From: an uncultured Acidobacteriota bacterium
Lineage (GTDB): Bacteria > Acidobacteriota > Thermoanaerobaculia > Thermoanaerobaculales > Sulfomarinibacteraceae
Assembly: GCA_963814875.1 (NCBI GenBank)
Contig: CAWFFJ010000026.1
Coordinates: forward strand, 82,184-146,183
Reading direction: 5' to 3'
Length of the DNA stretch: 64,000 nucleotides
Shown here: positions 2,227 to 60,929 of the stretch, one piece after another
Position numbering within the stretch: the first letter of the stretch is position 1
How the letters are laid out: the number at the start of each line of letters is the position of its first letter
Program-made: the position numbers and the translations under genes
Notes under the pieces: model-generated
What the model saw: the letters and a program-made list of their open reading frames with translations, nothing else
What the model was told of the DNA's origin: nothing
Databases searched by the model: none

Positions 2227-4122
2227 TTACTTCGACGCCCCGCCCTCCCGGCGGGCCAGGATCGCCTCGATCTCGTCCATGATCCGGTTCATCCGCGACA
2301 GCAGGGCCTGGTAGGGCGCCGGGGTCGCGAGGTCGACCCCTGCGTCCTTGAGGAGCTGGTAGGGGTAGGCCGATCCGCCCGACCTGAGCACGCTCAGGTA
2401 GCGCTCCCTGGCGCCCGGCTGGCCGGCGAGGACCTCGTCGGCGAACAGCGATGAAGCGGCCAGCGAGGTGGCGTACTGGTAGACGTAGAAGTTGTAGTAG
2501 AAGTGGGGGATGTAGGCCCACTCTACGGTGTAGGCGTCGTCCACGGTGAGCACGCCCTGGTCCTGGCCGTGATAGCGGCGCAGGAGCTCGCCGTACTCCT
2601 TGGTCAGGCGTTGGCCCGACAGCGCCTCGCCCTTTTCGACCAGCTCGTGGATCCGGAGCTCGAACTCGGCGAACATCGCCTGCCGGAAGAAGGTCCCGCG
2701 CAGGCCCTCGAGCGCCGAGCCCAGGTAGTACAGACGCTCGGTATCGTCCTTCGCGGTCGCCAGCATGTGGTCGAGCAGCAGCGCCTCGTTGAACGTCGAG
2801 GCGACCTCGGCGACGAAGATCGAGTAGTCGGAGGTCGCAAACGGCTGCGCCGCGTTCGCGAGGAAGGAGTGCATGGCGTGGCCCCACTCGTGGGCCATCG
2901 TGCTCACCGACTCGTAGTCGTCGTTGTAGTTCAACAGGACGTAGGGGTGGACGTCGTAGACGGAGCCGTTGGAGTAGGCCCCGGAGCGCTTGCCGGGCTG
3001 CGGGAAGACGTCCATCCAGCGCTGTCCGAAGCCGCGACGGACGGTGTCGACGTAGTCCTTGCCGAGCGGGGCGAGCGCGTCGAGCACGACCTTCTCGCCG
3101 GTTGCGACCGGAAACGTGAGGTCGGCGGAGACCAGCGGCGGGTAGATGTCGTAGTAGCGCAGGTCCGCGATGCCGAGCATTCGACCGCGCAGCTTGAAGT
3201 AGCGGTACAGGGTCGGCAGGCCGTCGTTGGTCGCCGCGATGAGTGTTCGGTAGACCGCCTCGGGCACGTTAGTGCGGTCGAGGGCGGCGGCGAGCGCGTT
3301 CGGGTAGTTGCGCGCCTTGGCGTAGAACATGTCGCGCTTGACCTGGGAGTAGAGGGTGACGCCGCAGGTCCGCTCCCACTCCTTCCAGGTCTTCCAGAAG
3401 GTGTCGAAGACCAGCTTGCGGTCGGCCCGGTTCTCCGTCGCGCGCCAGCGGGTGTAGCCGGACTGGTCGAGGCGTGCAGAGGTGCCGTCGGACAGCGTGA
3501 CCGTCGGCCACGGCATGTCGGCGTTGGCCAGGATCGAGTAGATCGAGTAGGGCGCATCGGACATCAGGGAGGCGTCGGCGATCACACCCTCGGCCTCCTC
3601 GCCGAGGGTGTGGGGCTTGCGCCGCAAGGTGTCCTCGAGGGCGTGGCGGTAGAGCTCGAGGCTCGGGTCGGCGGCGAGCAGCTCGTTGATGCGAGCCTCA
3701 CCGGCGGCGAGCAGCTCGGGCTCGATGAAGCTGGTCACGGAAGCGAAGTGGGAGCCGAGCAGGGAGGCTTCCTGGCGCAGCTCCAGGGGTCGCGCCGCAC
3801 GGGTGTCCTCGTCGGACAGCATCGAGGCGTAGGACTCGACGCGCTGCATCTCCTTGAGTGCGCCGTAGAGGCTGTCGAAGCACCCCTTGAGGCGCGCTGC
3901 GCTCTCGGTCAGGTGTCCCTGGCACTCGGCGAGGGGGACCAGCCGACTCTCGATGTCCTGCCGGGCCTGCTGCCAGGCCGCCTCATCGGGGTAGATGTCG
4001 GCCAGGTTCCAACGGTAGGCCTGAGCGTCGTCCATGCTGGAGTCCTCCTGCGCCGGCACGGCCGGCGCCACGAGCGCGAGCGCGAGCGCGGCGGGGATGA
4101 TCGACCGTCCGAAGAGCGTCAT
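2227..4122 (-). CDS. pepF: M3-family oligoendopeptidase F with a signal peptide
   Basis: 631 aa with the HEXXH zinc motif in MAHEWGHAMHS. Length and overall similarity pattern fit M3B PepF. The N-terminal signal peptide is MTLFGRSIIPAALALALVAPAVPAQ. Confidence 0.9.
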   Translation of the reverse strand: MTLFGRSIIPAALALALVAPAVPAQEDSSMDDAQAYRWNLADIYPDEAAWQQARQDIESRLVPLAECQGHLTESAARLKGCFDSLYGALKEMQRVESYASMLSDEDTRAARPLELRQEASLLGSHFASVTSFIEPELLAAGEARINELLAADPSLELYRHALEDTLRRKPHTLGEEAEGVIADASLMSDAPYSIYSILANADMPWPTVTLSDGTSARLDQSGYTRWRATENRADRKLVFDTFWKTWKEWERTCGVTLYSQVKRDMFYAKARNYPNALAAALDRTNVPEAVYRTLIAATNDGLPTLYRYFKLRGRMLGIADLRYYDIYPPLVSADLTFPVATGEKVVLDALAPLGKDYVDTVRRGFGQRWMDVFPQPGKRSGAYSNGSVYDVHPYVLLNYNDDYESVSTMAHEWGHAMHSFLANAAQPFATSDYSIFVAEVASTFNEALLLDHMLATAKDDTERLYYLGSALEGLRGTFFRQAMFAEFELRIHELVEKGEALSGQRLTKEYGELLRRYHGQDQGVLTVDDAYTVEWAYIPHFYYNFYVYQYATSLAASSLFADEVLAGQPGARERYLSVLRSGGSAYPYQLLKDAGVDLATPAPYQALLSRMNRIMDEIEAILARREGGASK

Positions 4123-4252: not shown

Positions 4253-6859
4253 ATGGCCCACGACTTCGAGCTCACCGACAGTGTCGACTCCGTTCGCGAG
4301 TGGCGTCATCGTGCCAATCGGCTGCGGGTACTGGTGTCCCCGACACCGGTGGCGCCCGTGGTCAGCTTCGGCGTCGTCTACGCCGTCGGCTCACGCCACG
4401 AGGGCGCCGGCCACACCGGCGCCACTCACCTCCTCGAGCACCTCATGTTCAAGGGGACGGAGCGCTTCAACCGCGACCGCGGGACCGAGATCGCGCGCGT
4501 CCTGCAGCGGGTCGGCGCGGCGTTCAACGCCACCACCTGGCTCGACCGGACCAACTACTACGAGACCGTGCCGATCGAGCACCTCGAGCTCGCGATCGAC
4601 ATCGAGGCCGACCGGATGCGCGGCGCGAGGGTCCGTCCCGAGGACCTCGAGAGCGAGCGCACGGTTGTCCTCAACGAGCTCGAGCGCGGCGAGAACGAGC
4701 CCTTCGACGTGCTCATGAAGGCCTCCTTCGCGCATGCCTTCCTCGAGCACCCCTACCATCACCCGACTATCGGGTGGCGCTCGGACGTCGAGAGCATCAG
4801 CGCCGAGGTCCTGCGCCGCTTCTACGACACCTACTACCACCCGGACAACGCCACCGTCATCGTCACCGGTGAGATCGACGAGGCGGCCGCGCTGGAGCAG
4901 GTGGAACGCCGTTTCGGTGCGATTCCCCCGGCTCCGGCTCCGGTGCCCGAGGTGCGCGCCCGCGAGGGCGTTCAGCGCGGCGAGCGCCGGTTCGTCCTCC
5001 ACCGGGCGGCGGAGGTCGGCGCCCTGGCGATGACCTGGCACATTCCGGCGGGGCTCCACCCCGACCTGCCCGCGCTGTCGGTGCTCAGCCAGGTGCTCTC
5101 CGAGGGCGTCACCTCGCGGCTCTACCAGCGCCTGGTCGAGACCAACCGCTGCCTCGGCGTGCACGCGTTCCCGATGGAGCTGCACGACCCGGGCGCGGTG
5201 CTCGTGTTCGCGACCCTCGCGCCGGGCGTACCCCACGCCGAGATCGAGGCGGTCCTGCGGGAGGAGATCACCGCGCTGGCGCACGTTCGTCCGCAGGAGG
5301 ACGAGATGGCGCGGGCCAAGATCCAGGTCCGCACCGACCTCGCGTTCCACCGCGAGTCGCCGGCGCAGATTCTCGCCGGCCTCACGGAGGCGGTGGCGAT
5401 GGGTGACTGGAGGAGGTTCCTGGGCGAGCTGGAGGCGGTCTCGGCGGTCACCGCAGACGACGTCTCCCGGGTTGCCGCCGAGCACCTCCACGAGCGCAAC
5501 CTGACCGTCGGATGGCTGGTGCCCGAGGACGGCAACGGCACGATGGCAGCCGATCCCGACCCGGGGCCGCGGCCGTGCTTCTTGAGCCGGCCCCTGGCCG
5601 ATCGGGTTGCGCTCAAGGACCTGCCGAGCGGCGGTCGGGTGGCGGTGCTGTCGAACCCGCACGCTCCCACGGTGACCATCGCCGGCAGTTTACGGGCGGG
5701 CCGGGCGATGGTCGAGGACCAACGGTTCGGCGTCGCAGGGTTAACGGCGGCGATGCTCGACCGCGGCACGGCGCACCACGACCGGCTCTCCTTCGCCCGC
5801 GAGATCGAGGACCACGGTCTACAGCTCGGGGTCGACACCTCCGGCAGCCTGCCGACCGTGGTGACGCTGTCGGTCCAGGGGCTCGCAGAGGAGCTTCCCC
5901 GGATGGCCGGCCTGCTGGCAGAGGTGCTGCGCGAGCCGTCCTTTGCCGCCGACCAGCTCGAGATCCTGCGCGAGCAGATCCTCGGCAGCCTCGCTCGCGA
6001 GCGCGAGGACACGTTTTCTCAGGGCTTCGCCGCCCTGACCCGTCTGCTCTACCCGGCGGGTCACCCGCACCATCGGCGATGCGTTGCGGCGCGCCGCGAG
6101 GAGGTGCTCGGCATCGCGCGTGAGGACCTGGTCGCCTTCCACGCCCGCGCCTACTCGCCGGCGTCGCTGATGCTGGCGGTGGTGGGGGCGGTCGAGGCCG
6201 GCGAGGTTCACGAGCTCCTGGGGGCGGCGTTCGACGGCTGGCTGGTCCCTGCCCCGTCGATCCCGAGCTGGCCGCCGGTCGGCGCGCCCAGCGGAGCGGG
6301 AGAACTGGTGCGGATCGCCGACCGTCCCAACCTCGACGCCTTCCTCGGTCGTGCCGGGAGCCTGCGGCGCGGCGATCCGGACCATCCGGCGGCGATCGTC
6401 GCCAACTCTTGCCTCGGCCAGTCCACCCTCACGTCGCGGCTCGGGGCGGAGGTCCGTGACCGGGCGGGGCTGACCTACGGGATCTACAGTCGCTTCTTCG
6501 GCACCCTCGAGCTGGCCGGGCCGTGGTCGGTCTTTCTCAGCGTGTCGCCGGACAGTCTCGACCGTGCAGTCGAGCTGTGCCGGGAGGTGATCACGCGCTA
6601 CTGGAGCGAAGGCCCGGCCGTCGACGAGCTCGAGGACGAGCGTCAGGCCTTGGCGGGGAGCTACCGCGTGTCGCTCGCGACCAACGCCGGCGTCGCCCGC
6701 GAGCTGGTCACGATGCTCACCGCCGGAGAGTCGGTCGAGAGCGTCGACCGCTACCCGGACGAGCTGCTCGCAGTCAGTCGAGAGCAGGTGATGGAGGCGA
6801 TTCGCACGCACCTGCACCCGGACGGACTTGTGGTCACAGCCGCCGGGAGCGTGCCGTAG
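4253..6859 (+). CDS. M16 (pitrilysin/insulinase) family zinc peptidase with fused active and inactive halves
   Basis: 868 aa with the inverted zinc motif HxxEH in GATHLLEHLMFKGTERF. A second M16-like half follows (about residue 450 onward). Confidence 0.9.
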   Translation: MAHDFELTDSVDSVREWRHRANRLRVLVSPTPVAPVVSFGVVYAVGSRHEGAGHTGATHLLEHLMFKGTERFNRDRGTEIARVLQRVGAAFNATTWLDRTNYYETVPIEHLELAIDIEADRMRGARVRPEDLESERTVVLNELERGENEPFDVLMKASFAHAFLEHPYHHPTIGWRSDVESISAEVLRRFYDTYYHPDNATVIVTGEIDEAAALEQVERRFGAIPPAPAPVPEVRAREGVQRGERRFVLHRAAEVGALAMTWHIPAGLHPDLPALSVLSQVLSEGVTSRLYQRLVETNRCLGVHAFPMELHDPGAVLVFATLAPGVPHAEIEAVLREEITALAHVRPQEDEMARAKIQVRTDLAFHRESPAQILAGLTEAVAMGDWRRFLGELEAVSAVTADDVSRVAAEHLHERNLTVGWLVPEDGNGTMAADPDPGPRPCFLSRPLADRVALKDLPSGGRVAVLSNPHAPTVTIAGSLRAGRAMVEDQRFGVAGLTAAMLDRGTAHHDRLSFAREIEDHGLQLGVDTSGSLPTVVTLSVQGLAEELPRMAGLLAEVLREPSFAADQLEILREQILGSLAREREDTFSQGFAALTRLLYPAGHPHHRRCVAARREEVLGIAREDLVAFHARAYSPASLMLAVVGAVEAGEVHELLGAAFDGWLVPAPSIPSWPPVGAPSGAGELVRIADRPNLDAFLGRAGSLRRGDPDHPAAIVANSCLGQSTLTSRLGAEVRDRAGLTYGIYSRFFGTLELAGPWSVFLSVSPDSLDRAVELCREVITRYWSEGPAVDELEDERQALAGSYRVSLATNAGVARELVTMLTAGESVESVDRYPDELLAVSREQVMEAIRTHLHPDGLVVTAAGSVP

Positions 6860-6867
6860 TAGCGCGA

Positions 6868-6924
6868 ACCGCGCAGCCCCTTGGCAGGCGTCCCTGTCGG
6901 GCAAGCGGGCGGAGGGGCTGCGCG
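6868..6924. terminator. Long-loop hairpin between convergent genes. A second 8-bp hairpin lies at 6938-6956.
   Basis: Perfect 12-bp stem CCGCGCAGCCCC (6868-6879) pairs with GGGGCTGCGCGG (6913-6924). GGATTCGC (6938-6945) pairs with GCGAATCC (6949-6956). There is no strong U-tract. Confidence 0.3.
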
Positions 6925-6981
6925 GCACGCGCTGCTTTGGATTCGCTGCGCGAATCCCGGTCAATGTCCTCGGCACGGGGC

Positions 6982-45295: not shown

Positions 45296-46263
45296 CCCAA
45301 CGCCGCGAGGTCGCCGTGACCTCGCCGCTGCCGGGCCGTGCGGTTGAGCGCCTCGAGGCCTCGCACAGGGTCCGGCTCCACGAGGGGTCGCCCCTCGTCG
45401 ATCCCGGCGACCTCGCCGAGTTCATCGGCGGGGCGCAGGGCGTGGTGACCTTGCTCGCCAACCCGGTCACCGAAGCCGTGCTCTCGGCCTGCCCGTACCT
45501 CGAGGTGGTCGGGAACTGCGCCGTCGGCTACGACAACGTCGACATCGACGCTGCCTGCCGCCGCGGGGTGTGGGTGACCAACACCCCCAACGTCCTGACC
45601 GAGGCCACGGCCGACCTCACCTGGGCACTGATCCTGGCCGTGACACGGCGCATCGTCGAGGCCGATGGTCTGGTGCGTGCTGGGCGCTTCATGGGCTGGC
45701 GACTGGACCTGCTCCTCGGCCGCGGACTGCAGGGCCAGACCCTCGGGGTCGTCGGGTGGGGACGCATCGGCCGCGCGGTCGCCAGACGAGCGCTCGTCTT
45801 CGGCATGAAGGTGGTCTTCGCGACTCCATCCCCACCTCCGGAGCCCGAGCCGCCGGCCCGCGCGGTGGCCCTCGACGAGCTGCTCGCCGCGAGCACCGTG
45901 GTCTCCCTGCACTGCCCGCTGACGCCCGCGACCCGCCATCTGCTCGACCATACCCGGCTCGCGCAGATGCGGCCTGGCGCCGTGCTCGTGAACACCTCGC
46001 GGGGACCACTGGTGGACGAGGATGCCCTCGTTGCAGCCCTCGCCTCGGGCCACCTCGGTGGCGCCGGCCTCGACGTCTACGAGCACGAGCCGACGGTGCA
46101 TCCCGGGCTCCTGGGTCGAGCCGACGTCGTCCTCCTGCCCCACATCGGCTCGGCGACCTCCGAAACCCGCGCCGCCATGGCTGAGCTCGCCGCCGACAAT
46201 GTTCGCGCCGTGCTCGCTGGAGAAGAGCCGCCGACACCGGTGGTCCGAGGACGCATGGCGTGA
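45292..46263 (+). CDS. D-isomer-specific 2-hydroxyacid dehydrogenase (glyoxylate/hydroxypyruvate reductase-like)
   Basis: Has the NAD motif LGVVGWGRIGRAVARRA and LVNTSRGPLVDEDALVAAL...LDVYEHEP, plus HIGSAT. ATGA overlap with the upstream gene. Confidence 0.88.
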   Translation: MTQRREVAVTSPLPGRAVERLEASHRVRLHEGSPLVDPGDLAEFIGGAQGVVTLLANPVTEAVLSACPYLEVVGNCAVGYDNVDIDAACRRGVWVTNTPNVLTEATADLTWALILAVTRRIVEADGLVRAGRFMGWRLDLLLGRGLQGQTLGVVGWGRIGRAVARRALVFGMKVVFATPSPPPEPEPPARAVALDELLAASTVVSLHCPLTPATRHLLDHTRLAQMRPGAVLVNTSRGPLVDEDALVAALASGHLGGAGLDVYEHEPTVHPGLLGRADVVLLPHIGSATSETRAAMAELAADNVRAVLAGEEPPTPVVRGRMA

Positions 46264-46269
46264 CCCCTG

Positions 46270-46432
46270 GAGGCCCGGCCGGGAACCCCCCGCGAAGCGA
46301 GAATCGCGAGGAGGCGTGAGATGTGGCGCCGGAAGGGCGCAGATGTAGTCCTTCTACTTCAAGAACTTCCGGCGCCGCAGATTGCACCTCATTCGCGATT
46401 CGCAGCCGTGAGGAGGTTTCCGGCCGGGCCTC
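46270..46432. repeat. 163-nt intergenic nested inverted repeat: a candidate structured RNA or MITE-like element
   Basis: Three perfect complementary blocks in nested order. 46270-46282 pairs with 46420-46432 (13 bp), 46301-46309 with 46393-46401 (9 bp), and 46325-46335 with 46366-46376 (11 bp). They are separated by size-matched internal loops (18/18 and 15/16 nt), with a 30-nt AT-richer apical loop. Confidence 0.55.
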
Positions 46433-51024: not shown

Positions 51025-52089
51025 TCACACCGTGTCCATGACGGCGCGGTCCACTGCGGTGGCGACCTCGAGGAAACCCCTGGCGGCCGCTGATTCGGGC
51101 CGGTCGGCGACCACCGGCCGGCCTGTGTCACCCGCGACCACGACCGCAGGGTCGAGCGGAATCGCACCGAGGAACGGTATCTCGAGCTGCTCCGCGGTGC
51201 GGCGTCCGCCGCCGGAGCCGAAGATGTGCTCGGTGTGGCCGCATGCCGGGCACTGGTAGTAGGCCATGTTCTCGACAATGCCGAGCACCGGCACGCCGAG
51301 CTTGACGAACATGTGCAGGGCCTTGCGCGCGTCGATCAGCGCGATGTCCTGAGGGGTGGTCACGATCACCGCGCCGGCGAACGGCAGGTTCTGGCATAAG
51401 GTAAGAGCCACGTCCCCGGTACCCGGCGGCAGGTCGACCACCAGGTAGTCCAAATCGCCCCACTCGACGTCGCCGACGAACTGCTCGAGGGCCTTGACCA
51501 GCATCGGGCCGCGCCAGATCACCGGCTGGTCGACGTCGATCATGAACCCGAGCGACATCACCCGGACTCCTCCGGGCACGATCACCGGGCTGATGCGACC
51601 GTCGGCACCTCCGCTCGGCTCCTGGGTGGCGCCCATCATCATCTGTTGGGACGGTCCGTAGATGTCGGCGTCGAGCAGCCCCACCGAGCGCCCGGACCTT
51701 GCCAGAGAGAGGGCCAGGTTGGCGGACACCGTGGACTTGCCGACCCCACCCTTACCGGAGGCGACCGCGACGATGTGGCGGACGCCACGGATCCGGTCGG
51801 CCCAGGTGGGGGCGGGCTCCGGACGGTCGCCGCCGACAGTGGCGAGCAGCGCCTGGACCCGGACCTCGGCCCTTTCAATGCCGGGCAGCGCGATCAGTGC
51901 CTTCTCCGTGGCGATTCGCAGGGTTTCGGTGTCGTTGGGTTGGCCGGCCTGGATGGCGAGCATGACCCGCACCGCGTTCCCCTCGACCTCGACGTGGCGC
52001 ACCGCACCGCTGTCGATCACGTTCGCAGACGTCCCCGGCAGTGTGATCCTGCGCAGGCAGTCAACGATCTCCTGTTCGGTCACTGGCAT
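51025..52089 (-). CDS. mrp: Mrp/ApbC-type Fe-S cluster carrier ATPase with an N-terminal DUF59 domain
   Basis: Has the deviant Walker A VASGKGGVGKSTVSANLA and the CxxC (CPACGH). ATG 52089 is preceded by GAGG. Confidence 0.9.
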   Translation of the reverse strand: MPVTEQEIVDCLRRITLPGTSANVIDSGAVRHVEVEGNAVRVMLAIQAGQPNDTETLRIATEKALIALPGIERAEVRVQALLATVGGDRPEPAPTWADRIRGVRHIVAVASGKGGVGKSTVSANLALSLARSGRSVGLLDADIYGPSQQMMMGATQEPSGGADGRISPVIVPGGVRVMSLGFMIDVDQPVIWRGPMLVKALEQFVGDVEWGDLDYLVVDLPPGTGDVALTLCQNLPFAGAVIVTTPQDIALIDARKALHMFVKLGVPVLGIVENMAYYQCPACGHTEHIFGSGGGRRTAEQLEIPFLGAIPLDPAVVVAGDTGRPVVADRPESAAARGFLEVATAVDRAVMDTV

Positions 52090-52186
52090 CTCGGGACCTC
52101 CCGCCCGCGGTCGCGGGCCGTTCATTGTAACGCTGCTGGCCGGCGGCCCCTGTTGGCCGGCGTACAATTCCGGGCGAGGAGGAGCC

Positions 52187-52984
52187 ATGCCCGAGACACG
52201 TTCCGAGGGAGTCCGTATCGCCTACCGCGACGAGGGCTCCGACCACCCGGTATTGCTGTTGCACGGCCACACCATGGACGGCCGCGCATGGGACGGCCTG
52301 GTCGAGCCGCTGACCAGAGCTGGGATGCGGCTGTTGCGGCCGGATCTGCGGGGTCATGGCGCCAGCGAGCGGCCGCCCGGGGGCTACCACTGGAGCCACC
52401 ACGGTACCGACATGGCTGCCGTTCTCGATGCCGCCGGCGTTGCGCGCGCGATCGTGGTCGGCTTCTCGCTCGGCGGAGGGGTAGCCCTCGAGCTCGCGCT
52501 GACTCGACCCGAGCGCGTCGAAGCGCTGGTTCTGATCGACCCCGTGATGCCCGATCGACCGTTCGAGGCTGCCTTCATGGACAACCTCCGGCAGGTGGCG
52601 CGGACGGCGCGCACGGAGGGCATCCGCGCGGCGATGGCCGGTCCCTGGATGGCGAGCCCGCTGTTTGCGGCATCGTTCGAGGCACCTGGGGTACGTGAGG
52701 CGACACAGGCGATCGTCGCCGACTTCCCGGGTGCGGAGTACCTCGCGAGCGAGCGCGACACGGTCGAACGCGGGTGGCGGACGCCGGACCGGCTGGCGGA
52801 GATCACGGTGCCGACCCTGGTCCTGGTCGGAGAGCGGGACATGCCCGGGTTCCGCGCGTTCGCGGAGGAGGCCGCTGCCGGCATTCCGGGGGCTTGCCTG
52901 GAGGTCGTGCCGGGGGCCGGTCACCTGGTCCCCCTCGAGCGGCCCGACCTCGTCGCCGAGCGCATTCTGACCATCGCGGAATGA
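52187..52984 (+). CDS. Alpha/beta-fold hydrolase
   Basis: Contains PVLLLHGHTMDGRAW and the nucleophile elbow GFSLGG. The C-terminal GAGHLVPLERP carries the catalytic His. Confidence 0.88.
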   Translation: MPETRSEGVRIAYRDEGSDHPVLLLHGHTMDGRAWDGLVEPLTRAGMRLLRPDLRGHGASERPPGGYHWSHHGTDMAAVLDAAGVARAIVVGFSLGGGVALELALTRPERVEALVLIDPVMPDRPFEAAFMDNLRQVARTARTEGIRAAMAGPWMASPLFAASFEAPGVREATQAIVADFPGAEYLASERDTVERGWRTPDRLAEITVPTLVLVGERDMPGFRAFAEEAAAGIPGACLEVVPGAGHLVPLERPDLVAERILTIAE

Positions 52985-53121
52985 ACCACAGAGGCACAGA
53001 GACACAGAGAAACACAGAGGGCTCCCGTCCGATGCCTCGCCGTGTGCCCGTGCCCCAGCACGGGCACACGGCGAGGCGTCTCGGGTGGGAGGGGGTTCTG
53101 TGCCTCTGTGCCTCTGTGGTT
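52984..53121. repeat. 138-nt near-perfect palindrome with CACAGAG heptad repeats: a REP/MITE-like element or bidirectional terminator
   Basis: The outer arms are AACCACAGAGGCACAGAG (52984-53001) and CTCTGTGCCTCTGTGGTT (53104-53121), an 18-bp perfect pairing. The inner stem, 53034-53052 with 53059-53077, is a 19-bp perfect pairing with loop CCCCAG. CACAGAG occurs 4 times on the left arm, and CTCTGTG occurs twice on the right arm with a variant TTCTGTG. Confidence 0.8.
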
Positions 53122-53131
53122 TGCCTGTCCG

Positions 53132-54463
53132 TCAGGCGAGGGCTCGGCGCAGGCTGTCCGCCAGGCGGGCCGCGAGGATCTCGATCTCGAGCGCGTCCTC
53201 ACCCTCGATCATCACCCGGGCAAGAGCCTCCGTGCCCGAGTAGCGCAGCAGGATCCGGCCGCGGCCCTCGAGCCTGCTCTGCCCGCCGACGAGCTCGGCT
53301 CGGACCTCCGGCAGCTGGTCGAACGGGGTCTTGCGCGCGACCGGGACGTTGACCAGCACCTGCGGCATCCGTTCGAGGTCGGACAGAGTGCCGAGGCTGC
53401 GCCCAGTGGCCGCCGCGAGGGCGAGCATGTGGGTGGCGGTGACGAGCCCGTCCCCGGTGACCGAGTGGTGCGCGCAGATCACGTGGCCCGACTGCTCGCC
53501 GCCGAGGGCGACGCCGTGCTCACGCATCGCGAGCCACACCGAGCGGTCGCCAACGGGACAGCGCTCGACGGCGATGCCGTCACGGGCGAGCGCCCGCTCG
53601 AGACCGAAGTTGCTCATCACGGTTGCTACCAGCCGGCGGCCTGGAAGTCTCTCCGCGGCGAGCAGGTGGCGGCCCCATGCGAGCAGGATGTCGTCACCGT
53701 CGAGGGTTTGCCCGTCGGCATCGACCAGAATCGCCCTATCCGCGTCTCCGTCCAGGGCGACGCCAGCATCAGTCCGGTAGTGGTGCACGGCGGCGGCGAC
53801 GTGTTCCGGGCAGGTTGCGCCGCAGCCGTTGTTGATGTTGGTGCCGTCAGGCTTCGAGGCGACCGTGACGACGCGGGCTCCGAGCCGTTCGAAGAGCGTT
53901 TCTGCCAGGCCGGAGGCAGCGCCGTGAGCGGCATCGACTGCAACCGTCAGGCCTTCGAGCGGCCGGTGTCGGTGGTGACTGGCCATCACCAGGTCGAGGT
54001 AACGCTCGGCGAGGTCGCTGTCCCGGGGCGGGAGGTCACGACCGTCGAGTACGGGGGTCTCGTCGAGGCGCTGCTCGAGTCGGCGCTCGACAGCGTCGGC
54101 AATCTTCTCGCCCGACGGCGCGAGGACCTTGATCCCGTTGTCTTGGGAGGGGTTGTGCGACGCCGAGATGACGACTCCAGCGGCCCACGATCCAGTGCGC
54201 AGCAGCTGGGAGACTGCGGGAGTGGGCAGGACACCGCCCCACGTCAGGCGACCGCCAGCCGCTTGGAAGCTGCCTCCGAGCCATGTCGCGAGGGTCTCGG
54301 TGGAGGCGCGGGTGTCGCCGGCGAGCAGCAGGTGTGGCTGATCACGGTTCGAGCCGAGCTCGGCCGCGAGAGCGGCGCCCAGGCGCCGCACCGTCGCCTC
54401 GTCGAGGGGCGGAGCGTACGCAGGCCCGCGGATGCCGTCGGTTCCGAAAAGTCTCAACTTCAT
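53132..54463 (-). CDS. glmM: Phosphoglucosamine mutase
   Basis: Begins MKLRLFGTDGIRG and has the active-site motif ISASHNPSQDNGIK. Confidence 0.92.
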   Translation of the reverse strand: MKLRLFGTDGIRGPAYAPPLDEATVRRLGAALAAELGSNRDQPHLLLAGDTRASTETLATWLGGSFQAAGGRLTWGGVLPTPAVSQLLRTGSWAAGVVISASHNPSQDNGIKVLAPSGEKIADAVERRLEQRLDETPVLDGRDLPPRDSDLAERYLDLVMASHHRHRPLEGLTVAVDAAHGAASGLAETLFERLGARVVTVASKPDGTNINNGCGATCPEHVAAAVHHYRTDAGVALDGDADRAILVDADGQTLDGDDILLAWGRHLLAAERLPGRRLVATVMSNFGLERALARDGIAVERCPVGDRSVWLAMREHGVALGGEQSGHVICAHHSVTGDGLVTATHMLALAAATGRSLGTLSDLERMPQVLVNVPVARKTPFDQLPEVRAELVGGQSRLEGRGRILLRYSGTEALARVMIEGEDALEIEILAARLADSLRRALA

Positions 54464-60854: not shown

Positions 60855-60929
60855 TGGTGGCGGTGGGTGGAATTGAACCACCGACACGGGGCTTATGAGA
60901 CCCCTGCTCTGCCGCTGAGCTACACCGCC
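60855..60929 (-). tRNA. tRNA with anticodon CAU, either elongator Met or the Ile2 lysidine substrate. CCA is encoded.
   Basis: The reverse complement is GGCGGTGTAGCTCAGCGGCAGAGCAGGGGTCTCATAAGCCCCGTGTCGGTGGTTCAATTCCACCCACCGCCACCA. It folds as a cloverleaf with a 7-bp acceptor stem, GTTCAAT T-loop and CTCATAA anticodon loop. The G1-C72 pair argues against an initiator. Confidence 0.88.

Follow-up and report, generated by a model that had tools for sequence, protein, structure and literature searches.

A nested CACAGAG palindrome between convergent hydrolase and glmM genes of an uncultured Acidobacteriota bacterium is a member of a dispersed family of paired tandem arrays

A 138-bp nested palindrome built from CACAGAG repeats lies between two convergent genes, one encoding an alpha/beta-hydrolase and the other the phosphoglucosamine mutase GlmM, in an uncultured Acidobacteriota bacterium of the Sulfomarinibacteraceae. 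We analyzed this element (positions 52984-53121, no strand) within a 64,000-nucleotide stretch of contig CAWFFJ010000026.1 (assembly GCA_963814875.1, forward-strand positions 82,184 to 146,183), which we call the window. The element is a member of a dispersed family of paired CACAGAG arrays, a family that is barely described and unusually wide in its distribution. In its behavior this family resembles selfish palindromic DNA, and it is linked to cassettes that encode GxxExxY nucleases. The explanation we favor, with a probability of roughly 65%, is that the window element is a copy without an open reading frame (ORF) of a horizontally spread palindromic family comparable to repetitive extragenic palindromes (REP), Rickettsia palindromic elements (RPE) and miniature inverted-repeat transposable elements (MITE), a passenger that additionally serves as a hairpin at the 3' end.

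The window element and its family

The element has the layout AACC-(CACAGAG-N)x4, a GC-rich hairpin and (N-CTCTGTG)x2-3-GGTT. Its left arm (52984-53019, + strand) starts with the terminal AACC and carries CACAGAG heptads at 52987, 52995, 53003 and 53013, which are spaced 8, 8 and 10 nt apart with the spacer bases G, A and AAA; in the fold of minimum energy, the fourth heptad stays unpaired. The right arm (53096-53121, + strand) is an inverted copy of the left and consists of a degenerate TTCTGTG (53096), two perfect CTCTGTG heptads (53104 and 53112) and the terminal GGTT. An initial annotation made from the letters alone had proposed a near-perfect 138-nt palindrome at this position, and the nested palindrome is indeed recovered from the sequence, by a repeat finder and by folding. 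As that annotation described, the outermost 18 bp of the arms pair perfectly and are followed by one mismatch, which is A/C at 53002/53103; the repeat finder extends the outer pairing to 25 nt (52984-53008 with 53097-53121, 96%). The four heptads reported for the left arm are present, but the right arm mirrors just two of them perfectly and one in degenerate form. Similarly, the inner stem was placed correctly but sized too small, at 19 bp with a CCCCAG loop: it spans 23 nt at 96% (53031-53053 with 53058-53080) around the loop CCCA (53054-53057). The interior GC-rich hairpin as a whole (53022-53091, no strand) comprises 32 pairs and a 2-nt bulge, with 53022-53053 pairing with 53058-53078 and 53081-53091. 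The two arms are separated by 88 nt, and a 15-mer core of the interior is absent from the 120 family loci that were fetched.

Folding, which the initial annotation had suggested as a check, gives extreme values on both strands. As RNA, the + strand reaches -117.9 kcal/mol (z=-11.6) and the - strand -113.5 kcal/mol (z=-9.9), while the DNA fold reaches -66.1 (z=-13.1). These values are far beyond chance, with none of 200 shuffles attaining them. The heptad-pair pattern matches six times in the window, always within the element, compared to 0.59 matches expected. All six reading frames are open through the window copy.

In order to define the distribution of the unit, one genome per species was scanned with the pattern CACAGAGNCACAGAGNCACAGA, which yielded at least 120 loci in more than 15 phyla. 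Among the matches listed, most hosts are Acidobacteriota, and the remainder include Planctomycetota, Gemmatimonadota, Alpha-, Beta- and Deltaproteobacteria, Verrucomicrobia, Spirochaetota, Chloroflexota, Chlorobiaceae, Parachlamydiaceae, Bacillota, Bacteroidota, Nitrospinota, Actinomycetota and one Methanotrichaceae archaeon; cultured isolates are included among the host genomes listed. Viral contigs contain 89 loci, several per contig, versus 4 for the permuted-heptad control GACCAAG-N. A further control, CAGACAG-N, was dropped because it equals the (CAGA)n microsatellite and hits at least 120 viral loci, in runs that are same-strand and not inverted.

Most family arrays form inverted pairs. 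We identified 87 such pairs among the genome matches listed and 57 in the viral set, with interiors of 6-190 nt that are unrelated or variable; some family members have longer ones. The consensus of 301 arms is aaaTT(C/A)AC-CACAGAG-R-CACAGAG-R-CACAGAG-AAA, describing an arm of about 30 nt with three to four tandem CACAGAG-N octamers and outer ends of (T)GAACC or TTCACC. The window sequence TGAAC-...-AAA fits the family in its outer end, its purine spacer and its A-rich inner end. A profile (R1) derived from 80 arms in other genomes matches the left arm of the window element at 52980-53012 with 38.5 bits (E=5.5e-11) and the right arm at 53097-53123 on the - strand with 30.6 bits (E=1.7e-8). Other genomes hold several copies per 8 kb (loci L048 and L082), and the number of units differs between family copies. 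Additionally, hairpins with tandem-repeat arms occur in many other units, with periods of 6, 7, 8, 10 and 12 nt.

A BLAST search with the consensus element produced one good match, in Bacteroides finegoldii, and otherwise weak matches in unannotated gut phage records; the window element itself returned nothing relevant against plasmids. The B. finegoldii member (L424 2488-2574; NZ_OY725921.1 15285-15358) comes from a cultured organism and lies between miaB and a convergent unannotated ORF. Its period is 9 nt (CACAGAGGA), yet the TTCACC/GGTGAA ends are retained.

The arms also carry information on what has been constrained. Mismatches in the family stems are of the G.U type in 98 cases, of the A.C type in 84 and of other types in 78. 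Since the first two numbers are similar, neither strand's RNA appears to be favored. On the CACAGAG strand, 83% of arms have a purine as their spacer (eighth) base, and spacer bases of opposing arms can pair in 71 of 166 cases, where 71.0 are expected under independence. Thus, the spacer base is not complementary between arms beyond chance and the constraint acts on each arm, not on pairing alone. The spacer data argue against selection purely for a perfect stem and against arm-to-arm copying, and favor recognition or generation of the unit.

GxxExxY cassettes and turnover at fixed sites

Two CACAGAG elements (L054 and L100) enclose an ORF of 114-118 amino acids that matches TIGR04256 "GxxExxY" (E=6e-44) and PF13366. 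The left arm of L100 is identical to that of the window element over 28 nt. At L052, a GxxExxY gene is found between inverted ACGCCAAG arrays, and ten viral GxxExxY genes have tandem arrays on both sides, one of them CACRRAG with TTCACC/GGTGAA ends and the others AT-rich 12-mers. At L425 and L436 a complete CACAGAG-type hairpin stands on either side of the GxxExxY ORF. The stop codon of this ORF lies within the repeat terminus at both loci: a TGA within the terminal TGAACC at L436, the same arrangement as for the window hydrolase, and a TAA within a terminal TAAACC at L425. All 15 GxxExxY loci inspected at the DNA level are flanked by arrays, although some of the viral loci are duplicate contigs.

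The association extends to annotated proteins. Long N-terminal extensions are annotated for 56 of the 120 closest homologs of the L054 protein, and 32 of these 56 carry a peptide like NHRDTEAQR, which is a translated CACAGAG array. Of nine long C-terminal tails, seven have the sequence SASPRL(C/G)G, which is the right arm in translation. Conversely, the closest homologs of the L052 protein, again 120, include 31 with the peptide RQDAKTPRRQ, a translated ACGCCAAG array, and no cross-cases between the two sets were found in either direction. The array peptide co-varies with the nuclease clade, and therefore ORF and arrays are inherited or moved as one unit. The left end of the window element, ATGAACCACAGAGGCACAGAGACACAGAG, would translate as MNHRGTETQR, the same end as in the cassettes. 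In many database GxxExxY proteins (P0001-P0240), the N-terminal extensions MNHRDTEAQR… and RQDAKTPRRQEP and the C-terminal extension SASPRLCGE correspond to translated flanking repeats; the public start and stop calls of this family are probably often wrong.

The GxxExxY protein is modeled with high confidence (pLDDT, the predicted local distance difference test, 94.6) as a minimal PD-(D/E)XK fold with the invariant residues E22, D62 and E72-x-K74. The nearest solved structures, all of them weak matches, are Cas4, RecB-type nuclease domains and lambda exonuclease, and PF13366 is entered in a survey of the superfamily as "unknown, multiple transfers". We tentatively suggest, while considering the opposite more probable, that GxxExxY proteins (PF13366/TIGR04256) might be homing or mobility enzymes of pan-bacterial palindromic elements with tandem 7-12-nt arms. 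Each clade would recognize either its own unit, for example CACAGAG, ACGCCAAG or AT-rich 12-mers, or the hairpin or cruciform, and hairpins without an ORF would be non-autonomous copies or empty homing sites. A viral CACAGAG element (L248 2816-3073) encloses, in the place of GxxExxY, a 60-amino-acid ORF with two CxxC pairs that is zinc-ribbon-like. A count of the ORFs located between inverted arrays was not used to define cargo, since it included, besides true cassettes, ordinary genes with a separate hairpin on either side.

Units are replaced at fixed sites. In related contigs with flanks that are 75-92% identical, a CACAGAG hairpin in one corresponds to a hairpin of another 7-8-nt unit (GTGGCCA, CGAGTAC, ATTGCCA, TTTGGTAA or GGGGAGA) or to a plain GC hairpin in the other, and several of these are intragenic sites in dnaE. 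The window locus behaves similarly: its nearest metagenomic relatives (GlmM 62-66% identical) again have glmM followed by a convergent hydrolase gene, and the spacer between them holds hairpins of TTAGAAnC, TTTTGAGT or GAACGTTn units. Downstream of glmM, four contigs (L121, L125, L126 and L127) have a TTAGAAnC array hairpin within an outer stem GGGTGCCAGGC/GCCTGGCACCC, while L128 has the short outer GC stem alone, closed by a loop of 4 nt. The two states resemble a filled and an empty site, with the insertion located in a hairpin loop. Nesting is seen elsewhere as well, with arrays of other units inside CACAGAG elements at L014 and L223, and the window copy encloses its private GC hairpin. Lastly, one peat species has either one or two tandem hairpins, with a unit of ~164 nt, upstream of a GxxExxY gene, depending on the sample (two copies in L435, L436 and L440 versus one in L439). 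Several of the contigs at this locus break just upstream, as expected at a repeat.

Gene context and in-frame copies

The hydrolase ORF occupies 51662-52984 on the + strand; its start codon is uncertain and residues 196-433 form the Pfam hydrolase domain. Its TGA stop (52982-52984, + strand) shares its last base with the first base of the palindrome (TGA-ACC). On the other side, glmM (53132-54463, - strand) encodes four PGM_PMM domains (Pfam) and ends with a stop codon at 53132-53134 (- strand); 10 nt separate this codon from the element's right end. The statement in the initial annotation that the palindrome fills the whole spacer is therefore accurate on the hydrolase side, whereas on the glmM side it falls 10 nt short. 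The glmM gene is the last of an apparent - strand operon, hpt-ftsH-folP-cdaA-ybbR-glmM, with the names of the other genes read from translations.

To place the family relative to genes, 138 short elements were classified using heuristic, greedy gene calls filtered by GC content at third codon positions (GC3), which replaced a raw long-ORF context that was too noisy in high-GC DNA. Co-directional genes flank 66 of the 138 elements, 35 in one orientation and 31 in the other. Convergent genes, as at the window locus, flank 12 of 138 and divergent genes 5 of 138; 10 of 138 lie inside called genes, and the remainder lie at contig edges or too distant from any gene. The gap after the upstream stop is mostly 1-20 nt and that before the next start mostly 0-30 nt. 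In viral contigs L261, L266, L277, L215 and L252, heptamer-array hairpins (e.g. CCAAAGA and GAGAACT) are located between consecutive phage structural genes, which by eye from their translations are head-tail connector-like, tail-completion-like and tape-measure-like.

At least four of the ten cases inside genes are real. The gene for the DNA polymerase III alpha subunit (dnaE) of three related Acidobacteria (L045 3990-7523; L084 3717-7358, - strand; L070 1199-4003, - strand) contains in-frame array hairpins at three sites, one in the PHP domain, one in HHH_6 and one after HHH_6. The Pfam domains around them are intact, and the unit at a given site differs among the three genomes. Additionally, a solo CACAGAG array (AIHHRDTETQSQNEG) lies in frame at 3739-3760 within a Phycisphaerae lysS ORF (L052 3128-4861, - strand). 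This ORF may contain a second repeat-like insertion (SGEGRGEGGSAIRNSQSEIRN) farther upstream. Since the purine arm lacks T and the opposite arm lacks A, no stop codon is possible in any frame of the arms. Whole elements, unlike the arms, show no clear excess of open frames over the genome background (3.84 vs 3.56 frames of 6).

Elsewhere in the window, other long inverted repeats are found at 6858-6936 (37-nt arms, 76%) and at 45299-45422 and 46270-46432 (21-nt arms, 86% and 90%), with sequences unrelated to the CACAGAG element. A tRNA gene at 60858-60929 (- strand) is the sole above-threshold Rfam match in the window.

Known systems and alternative explanations

The unit has been encountered in Geobacter metallireducens, for which Aklujkar et al. 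(2009, PMC2700814) list 21 pairs of sites under the name "class 2 predicted global regulator binding sites". Each site consists of three tandem copies of TCTCCGTS[Y], and the two sites of a pair lie on opposite strands with a varying distance between them. In the same work, sister classes are built from other octamers or heptamers, the sister species differs in sequence at the same spacer, and the sites, shown for one genome in a supplementary figure, are read as targets of integration host factor (IHF), HU or a regulator. Judged by the published consensus, TCTCCGTS[Y] is the reverse complement of CACGGAGA, and the two share the unit, the inverted pairs and the variable interior. Because of this match, we conclude that the family was seen once before, in one genome. 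The window element has the defining features of that class, with at least three tandem CAC(A/G)GAG-N units per arm (four on the left; two perfect and one degenerate on the right) in opposite-strand arrays around a variable interior. In contrast, neither phylogenetic spread nor in-frame copies nor a GxxExxY link is reported for Geobacter. No occurrence of the element's 15-mers was found in the literature text searched.

Several other classes of small repeats share part of this behavior. RPE reportedly measure ~100-150 bp and occur in intergenic regions or in frame in genes, where they are translated as extra loops. The family resembles them in its stop-free in-frame insertions (dnaE in L045, L070 and L084; lysS in L052), the window copy itself being intergenic; RPE are said, however, to be confined to Rickettsia and to have neither tandem-repeat arms nor an associated ORF, and the sequences are unrelated. 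MITEs have terminal inverted repeats that are common to many ORF-less and fewer ORF-bearing copies, and the arms of eukaryotic Foldback transposons consist of short tandem sub-repeats. In the present family, inverted arms around a variable interior are shared by ORF-less copies, including that in the window, and copies bearing GxxExxY. Unlike for MITEs and Foldback elements, no target-site duplication was seen for the inspected copies of the family, its ORF is a 118-amino-acid nuclease and not a known or demonstrated transposase, and some ORFs lie between two complete hairpins. Cyanobacteria reportedly carry the heptamers of the short tandemly repeated repetitive (STRR) sequences as well as small dispersed repeats. 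TAACTGA repeats are shared by Beggiatoaceae, Cyanobacteria and Bacteroidetes, with horizontal spread suspected and no mechanism known (MacGregor 2015, PMC4679880). Such tandem heptamers resemble the family as 7-8-nt arrays in intergenic DNA beside start and stop codons with a patchy occurrence across phyla, but they are mainly direct arrays instead of hairpin-forming inverted pairs, they use other units and no nuclease link is reported for them. Intervening sequences of 23S rRNA such as the Coxiella IVS/S23p (PMC4990558) are reportedly a selfish small ORF within an inverted-repeat stem, tolerated because the stem allows the host to process its RNA around it; that ORF encodes a four-helix bundle and not a PD-(D/E)XK fold, it resides in rRNA and its arms are not tandem octamers.

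Similar to REP sequences and the bacterial interspersed mosaic elements (BIME) composed of them, family members are multi-copy and vary between species at conserved sites, and REP/BIME elements are credited with side effects on mRNA stability. They are likewise short extragenic palindromes, often in inverted pairs, that follow stop codons or lie within operons, as in the REPIN system with its REP-associated tyrosine transposase, RAYT (Bertels & Rainey 2011, PMC3116915). The family differs in that its arms are tandem octamers found across phyla and that the gene flanked elsewhere encodes the PD-(D/E)XK protein GxxExxY, not RAYT. By most accounts, REP units are lineage-specific, each being one imperfect palindrome, 20-40 nt long, with a conserved GTAG-type head. 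The initial annotation had likened the element to REP, BIME or MITE; this stands for the selfish-palindrome behavior of the family (in-frame copies, nesting, site replacement and ORF-bearing relatives) but not for the strict REP definition, as no such GTAG-headed unit is present in the window arms. An integron attC site was rejected on its ends, which are AATGAAC / GTTTGCC versus the required R'' RYYYAAC and R' GTTRRRY, with most family ends being TTCACC/GGTGAA. Readings as a CRISPR-like array, a CsrA mimic or a Shine-Dalgarno mimic were likewise rejected, since their defining motifs do not fit the sequence.

A functional RNA hairpin could be what is selected, namely a long bidirectional terminator, an mRNA 3'-end stabilizer or an RNase III site for which the repeats are convenient stem builders. 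The extreme fold on both strands fits such a role, as does the location 0 and 10 nt after two convergent stops; family copies sit tightly between a stop and the next start with no orientation bias, nearly all relatives have some long hairpin in the same spacer, and the hairpins separating phage structural genes resemble the RNase III sites of phage T7. However, the window hairpin has no T tail (tails GGTTTGCC and GGTTCATT) and a terminator scan makes no call, in keeping with the initial remark that the element is too large for a plain terminator. Instead it belongs to a dispersed repeat family with arms conserved across many phyla and phages, and stem selection does not explain why a 30-nt sequence and its termini should be identical in different phyla. 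Pairing of the spacers is not maintained, and G.U-type and A.C-type mismatches are similarly frequent; in-frame copies within ORFs and the link to one nuclease clade are left unexplained; and the element reaches no family's gathering threshold in Rfam, where mraW is best (35.8 vs 50 bits) and the others are generic hairpins. We regard an RNA hairpin selected as such as rather unlikely. The arms could also be two opposed protein-binding arrays for a global regulator or an IHF/HU-like nucleoid protein, with a role in regulation or chromosome organization. This is how the 21 Geobacter pairs were read, as putative global-regulator sites (Aklujkar et al. 2009, PMC2700814), and it would accommodate both the purine spacer and the constraint on each arm separately. 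Yet more than 15 phyla, one archaeon and phages have no such regulator in common, copies lie in frame within dnaE and lysS, and unrelated units have been swapped in at the same sites in close relatives. Moreover, the elements mostly follow stop codons and are not at promoters, just 5 of 138 having divergent neighbors, and the co-varying GxxExxY nuclease is a better candidate for the binder, if any exists. Binding arrays thus seem to us an unlikely basis for the family.

A third possibility is a low-complexity palindrome grown locally by 8-nt slipped-strand duplication and arm-to-arm template switching, with nothing horizontal or mobile about it. The many units in which tandem-arm hairpins exist and the variation in unit number among copies are in line with this. 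Nevertheless it is strongly disfavored and, in our estimate, very improbable: convergence cannot yield the same heptad, purine spacer and TT(C/A)AC/GGTGAA termini in unrelated phyla, the permuted-heptad control is ~20 times rarer in viral contigs, and arm-to-arm copying would make the spacers complementary, which they are not. We prefer a horizontally spread, selfish palindromic family because none of these alternatives jointly explains the identity of arms and termini across phyla, the in-frame copies, the unit swaps and the co-variation with the nuclease.

Several observations weigh against this preference. No transposition event was caught; identical GxxExxY proteins, two of which recur on many contigs, always represent the same locus in many samples. 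No target-site duplication flanks the window copy or the inspected family copies, where pairing extends 2-8 nt outward, and no recognized transposase is associated with the family. Pattern and profile searches agree with the initial annotation that the 64-kb window holds no second copy, intact or degenerate. That heptads are conserved while spacer bases are not could equally reflect selection on each copy for binding some protein. The context counts derive from heuristic gene calls, and the effect on RNA at this locus is one that we infer for a hairpin with no T tail.

If the window element is a selfish, ORF-less family member, short copies would be non-autonomous derivatives, or target sites, of nuclease-bearing cassettes, and they would spread or be replaced by some process at the level of DNA that acts on either the arms or the hairpin. 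The window copy would have landed or persisted at the joint 3' end of two convergent transcription units, where it would be harmless and supply the last base of the hydrolase stop. A transcript arriving from either side would fold into a 25-bp-plus-32-bp hairpin, which would be expected to block 3'-exonucleases, hinder read-through and be a good substrate for RNase III. Such a REP-like effect on RNA would be a by-product and not the reason for the sequence's existence. The palindrome is probably a passenger that serves also as the 3'-end hairpin for glmM and the hydrolase gene.

Intergenic repeats of bacteria are normally lineage-specific, which makes it unusual for a non-coding arm of 30 nt to be conserved in more than 15 phyla, in phages and in an archaeon. 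If GxxExxY proteins do mobilize these elements, this would explain the identity of arms across phyla, why elements are nested in loops and why they are rapidly replaced at fixed sites. Repeat insertions that are translated as part of housekeeping proteins, as in dnaE and lysS, are relevant for annotation. The GxxExxY family numbers at least thousands of proteins and is without a known role, and its link to the repeats offers a testable partner.

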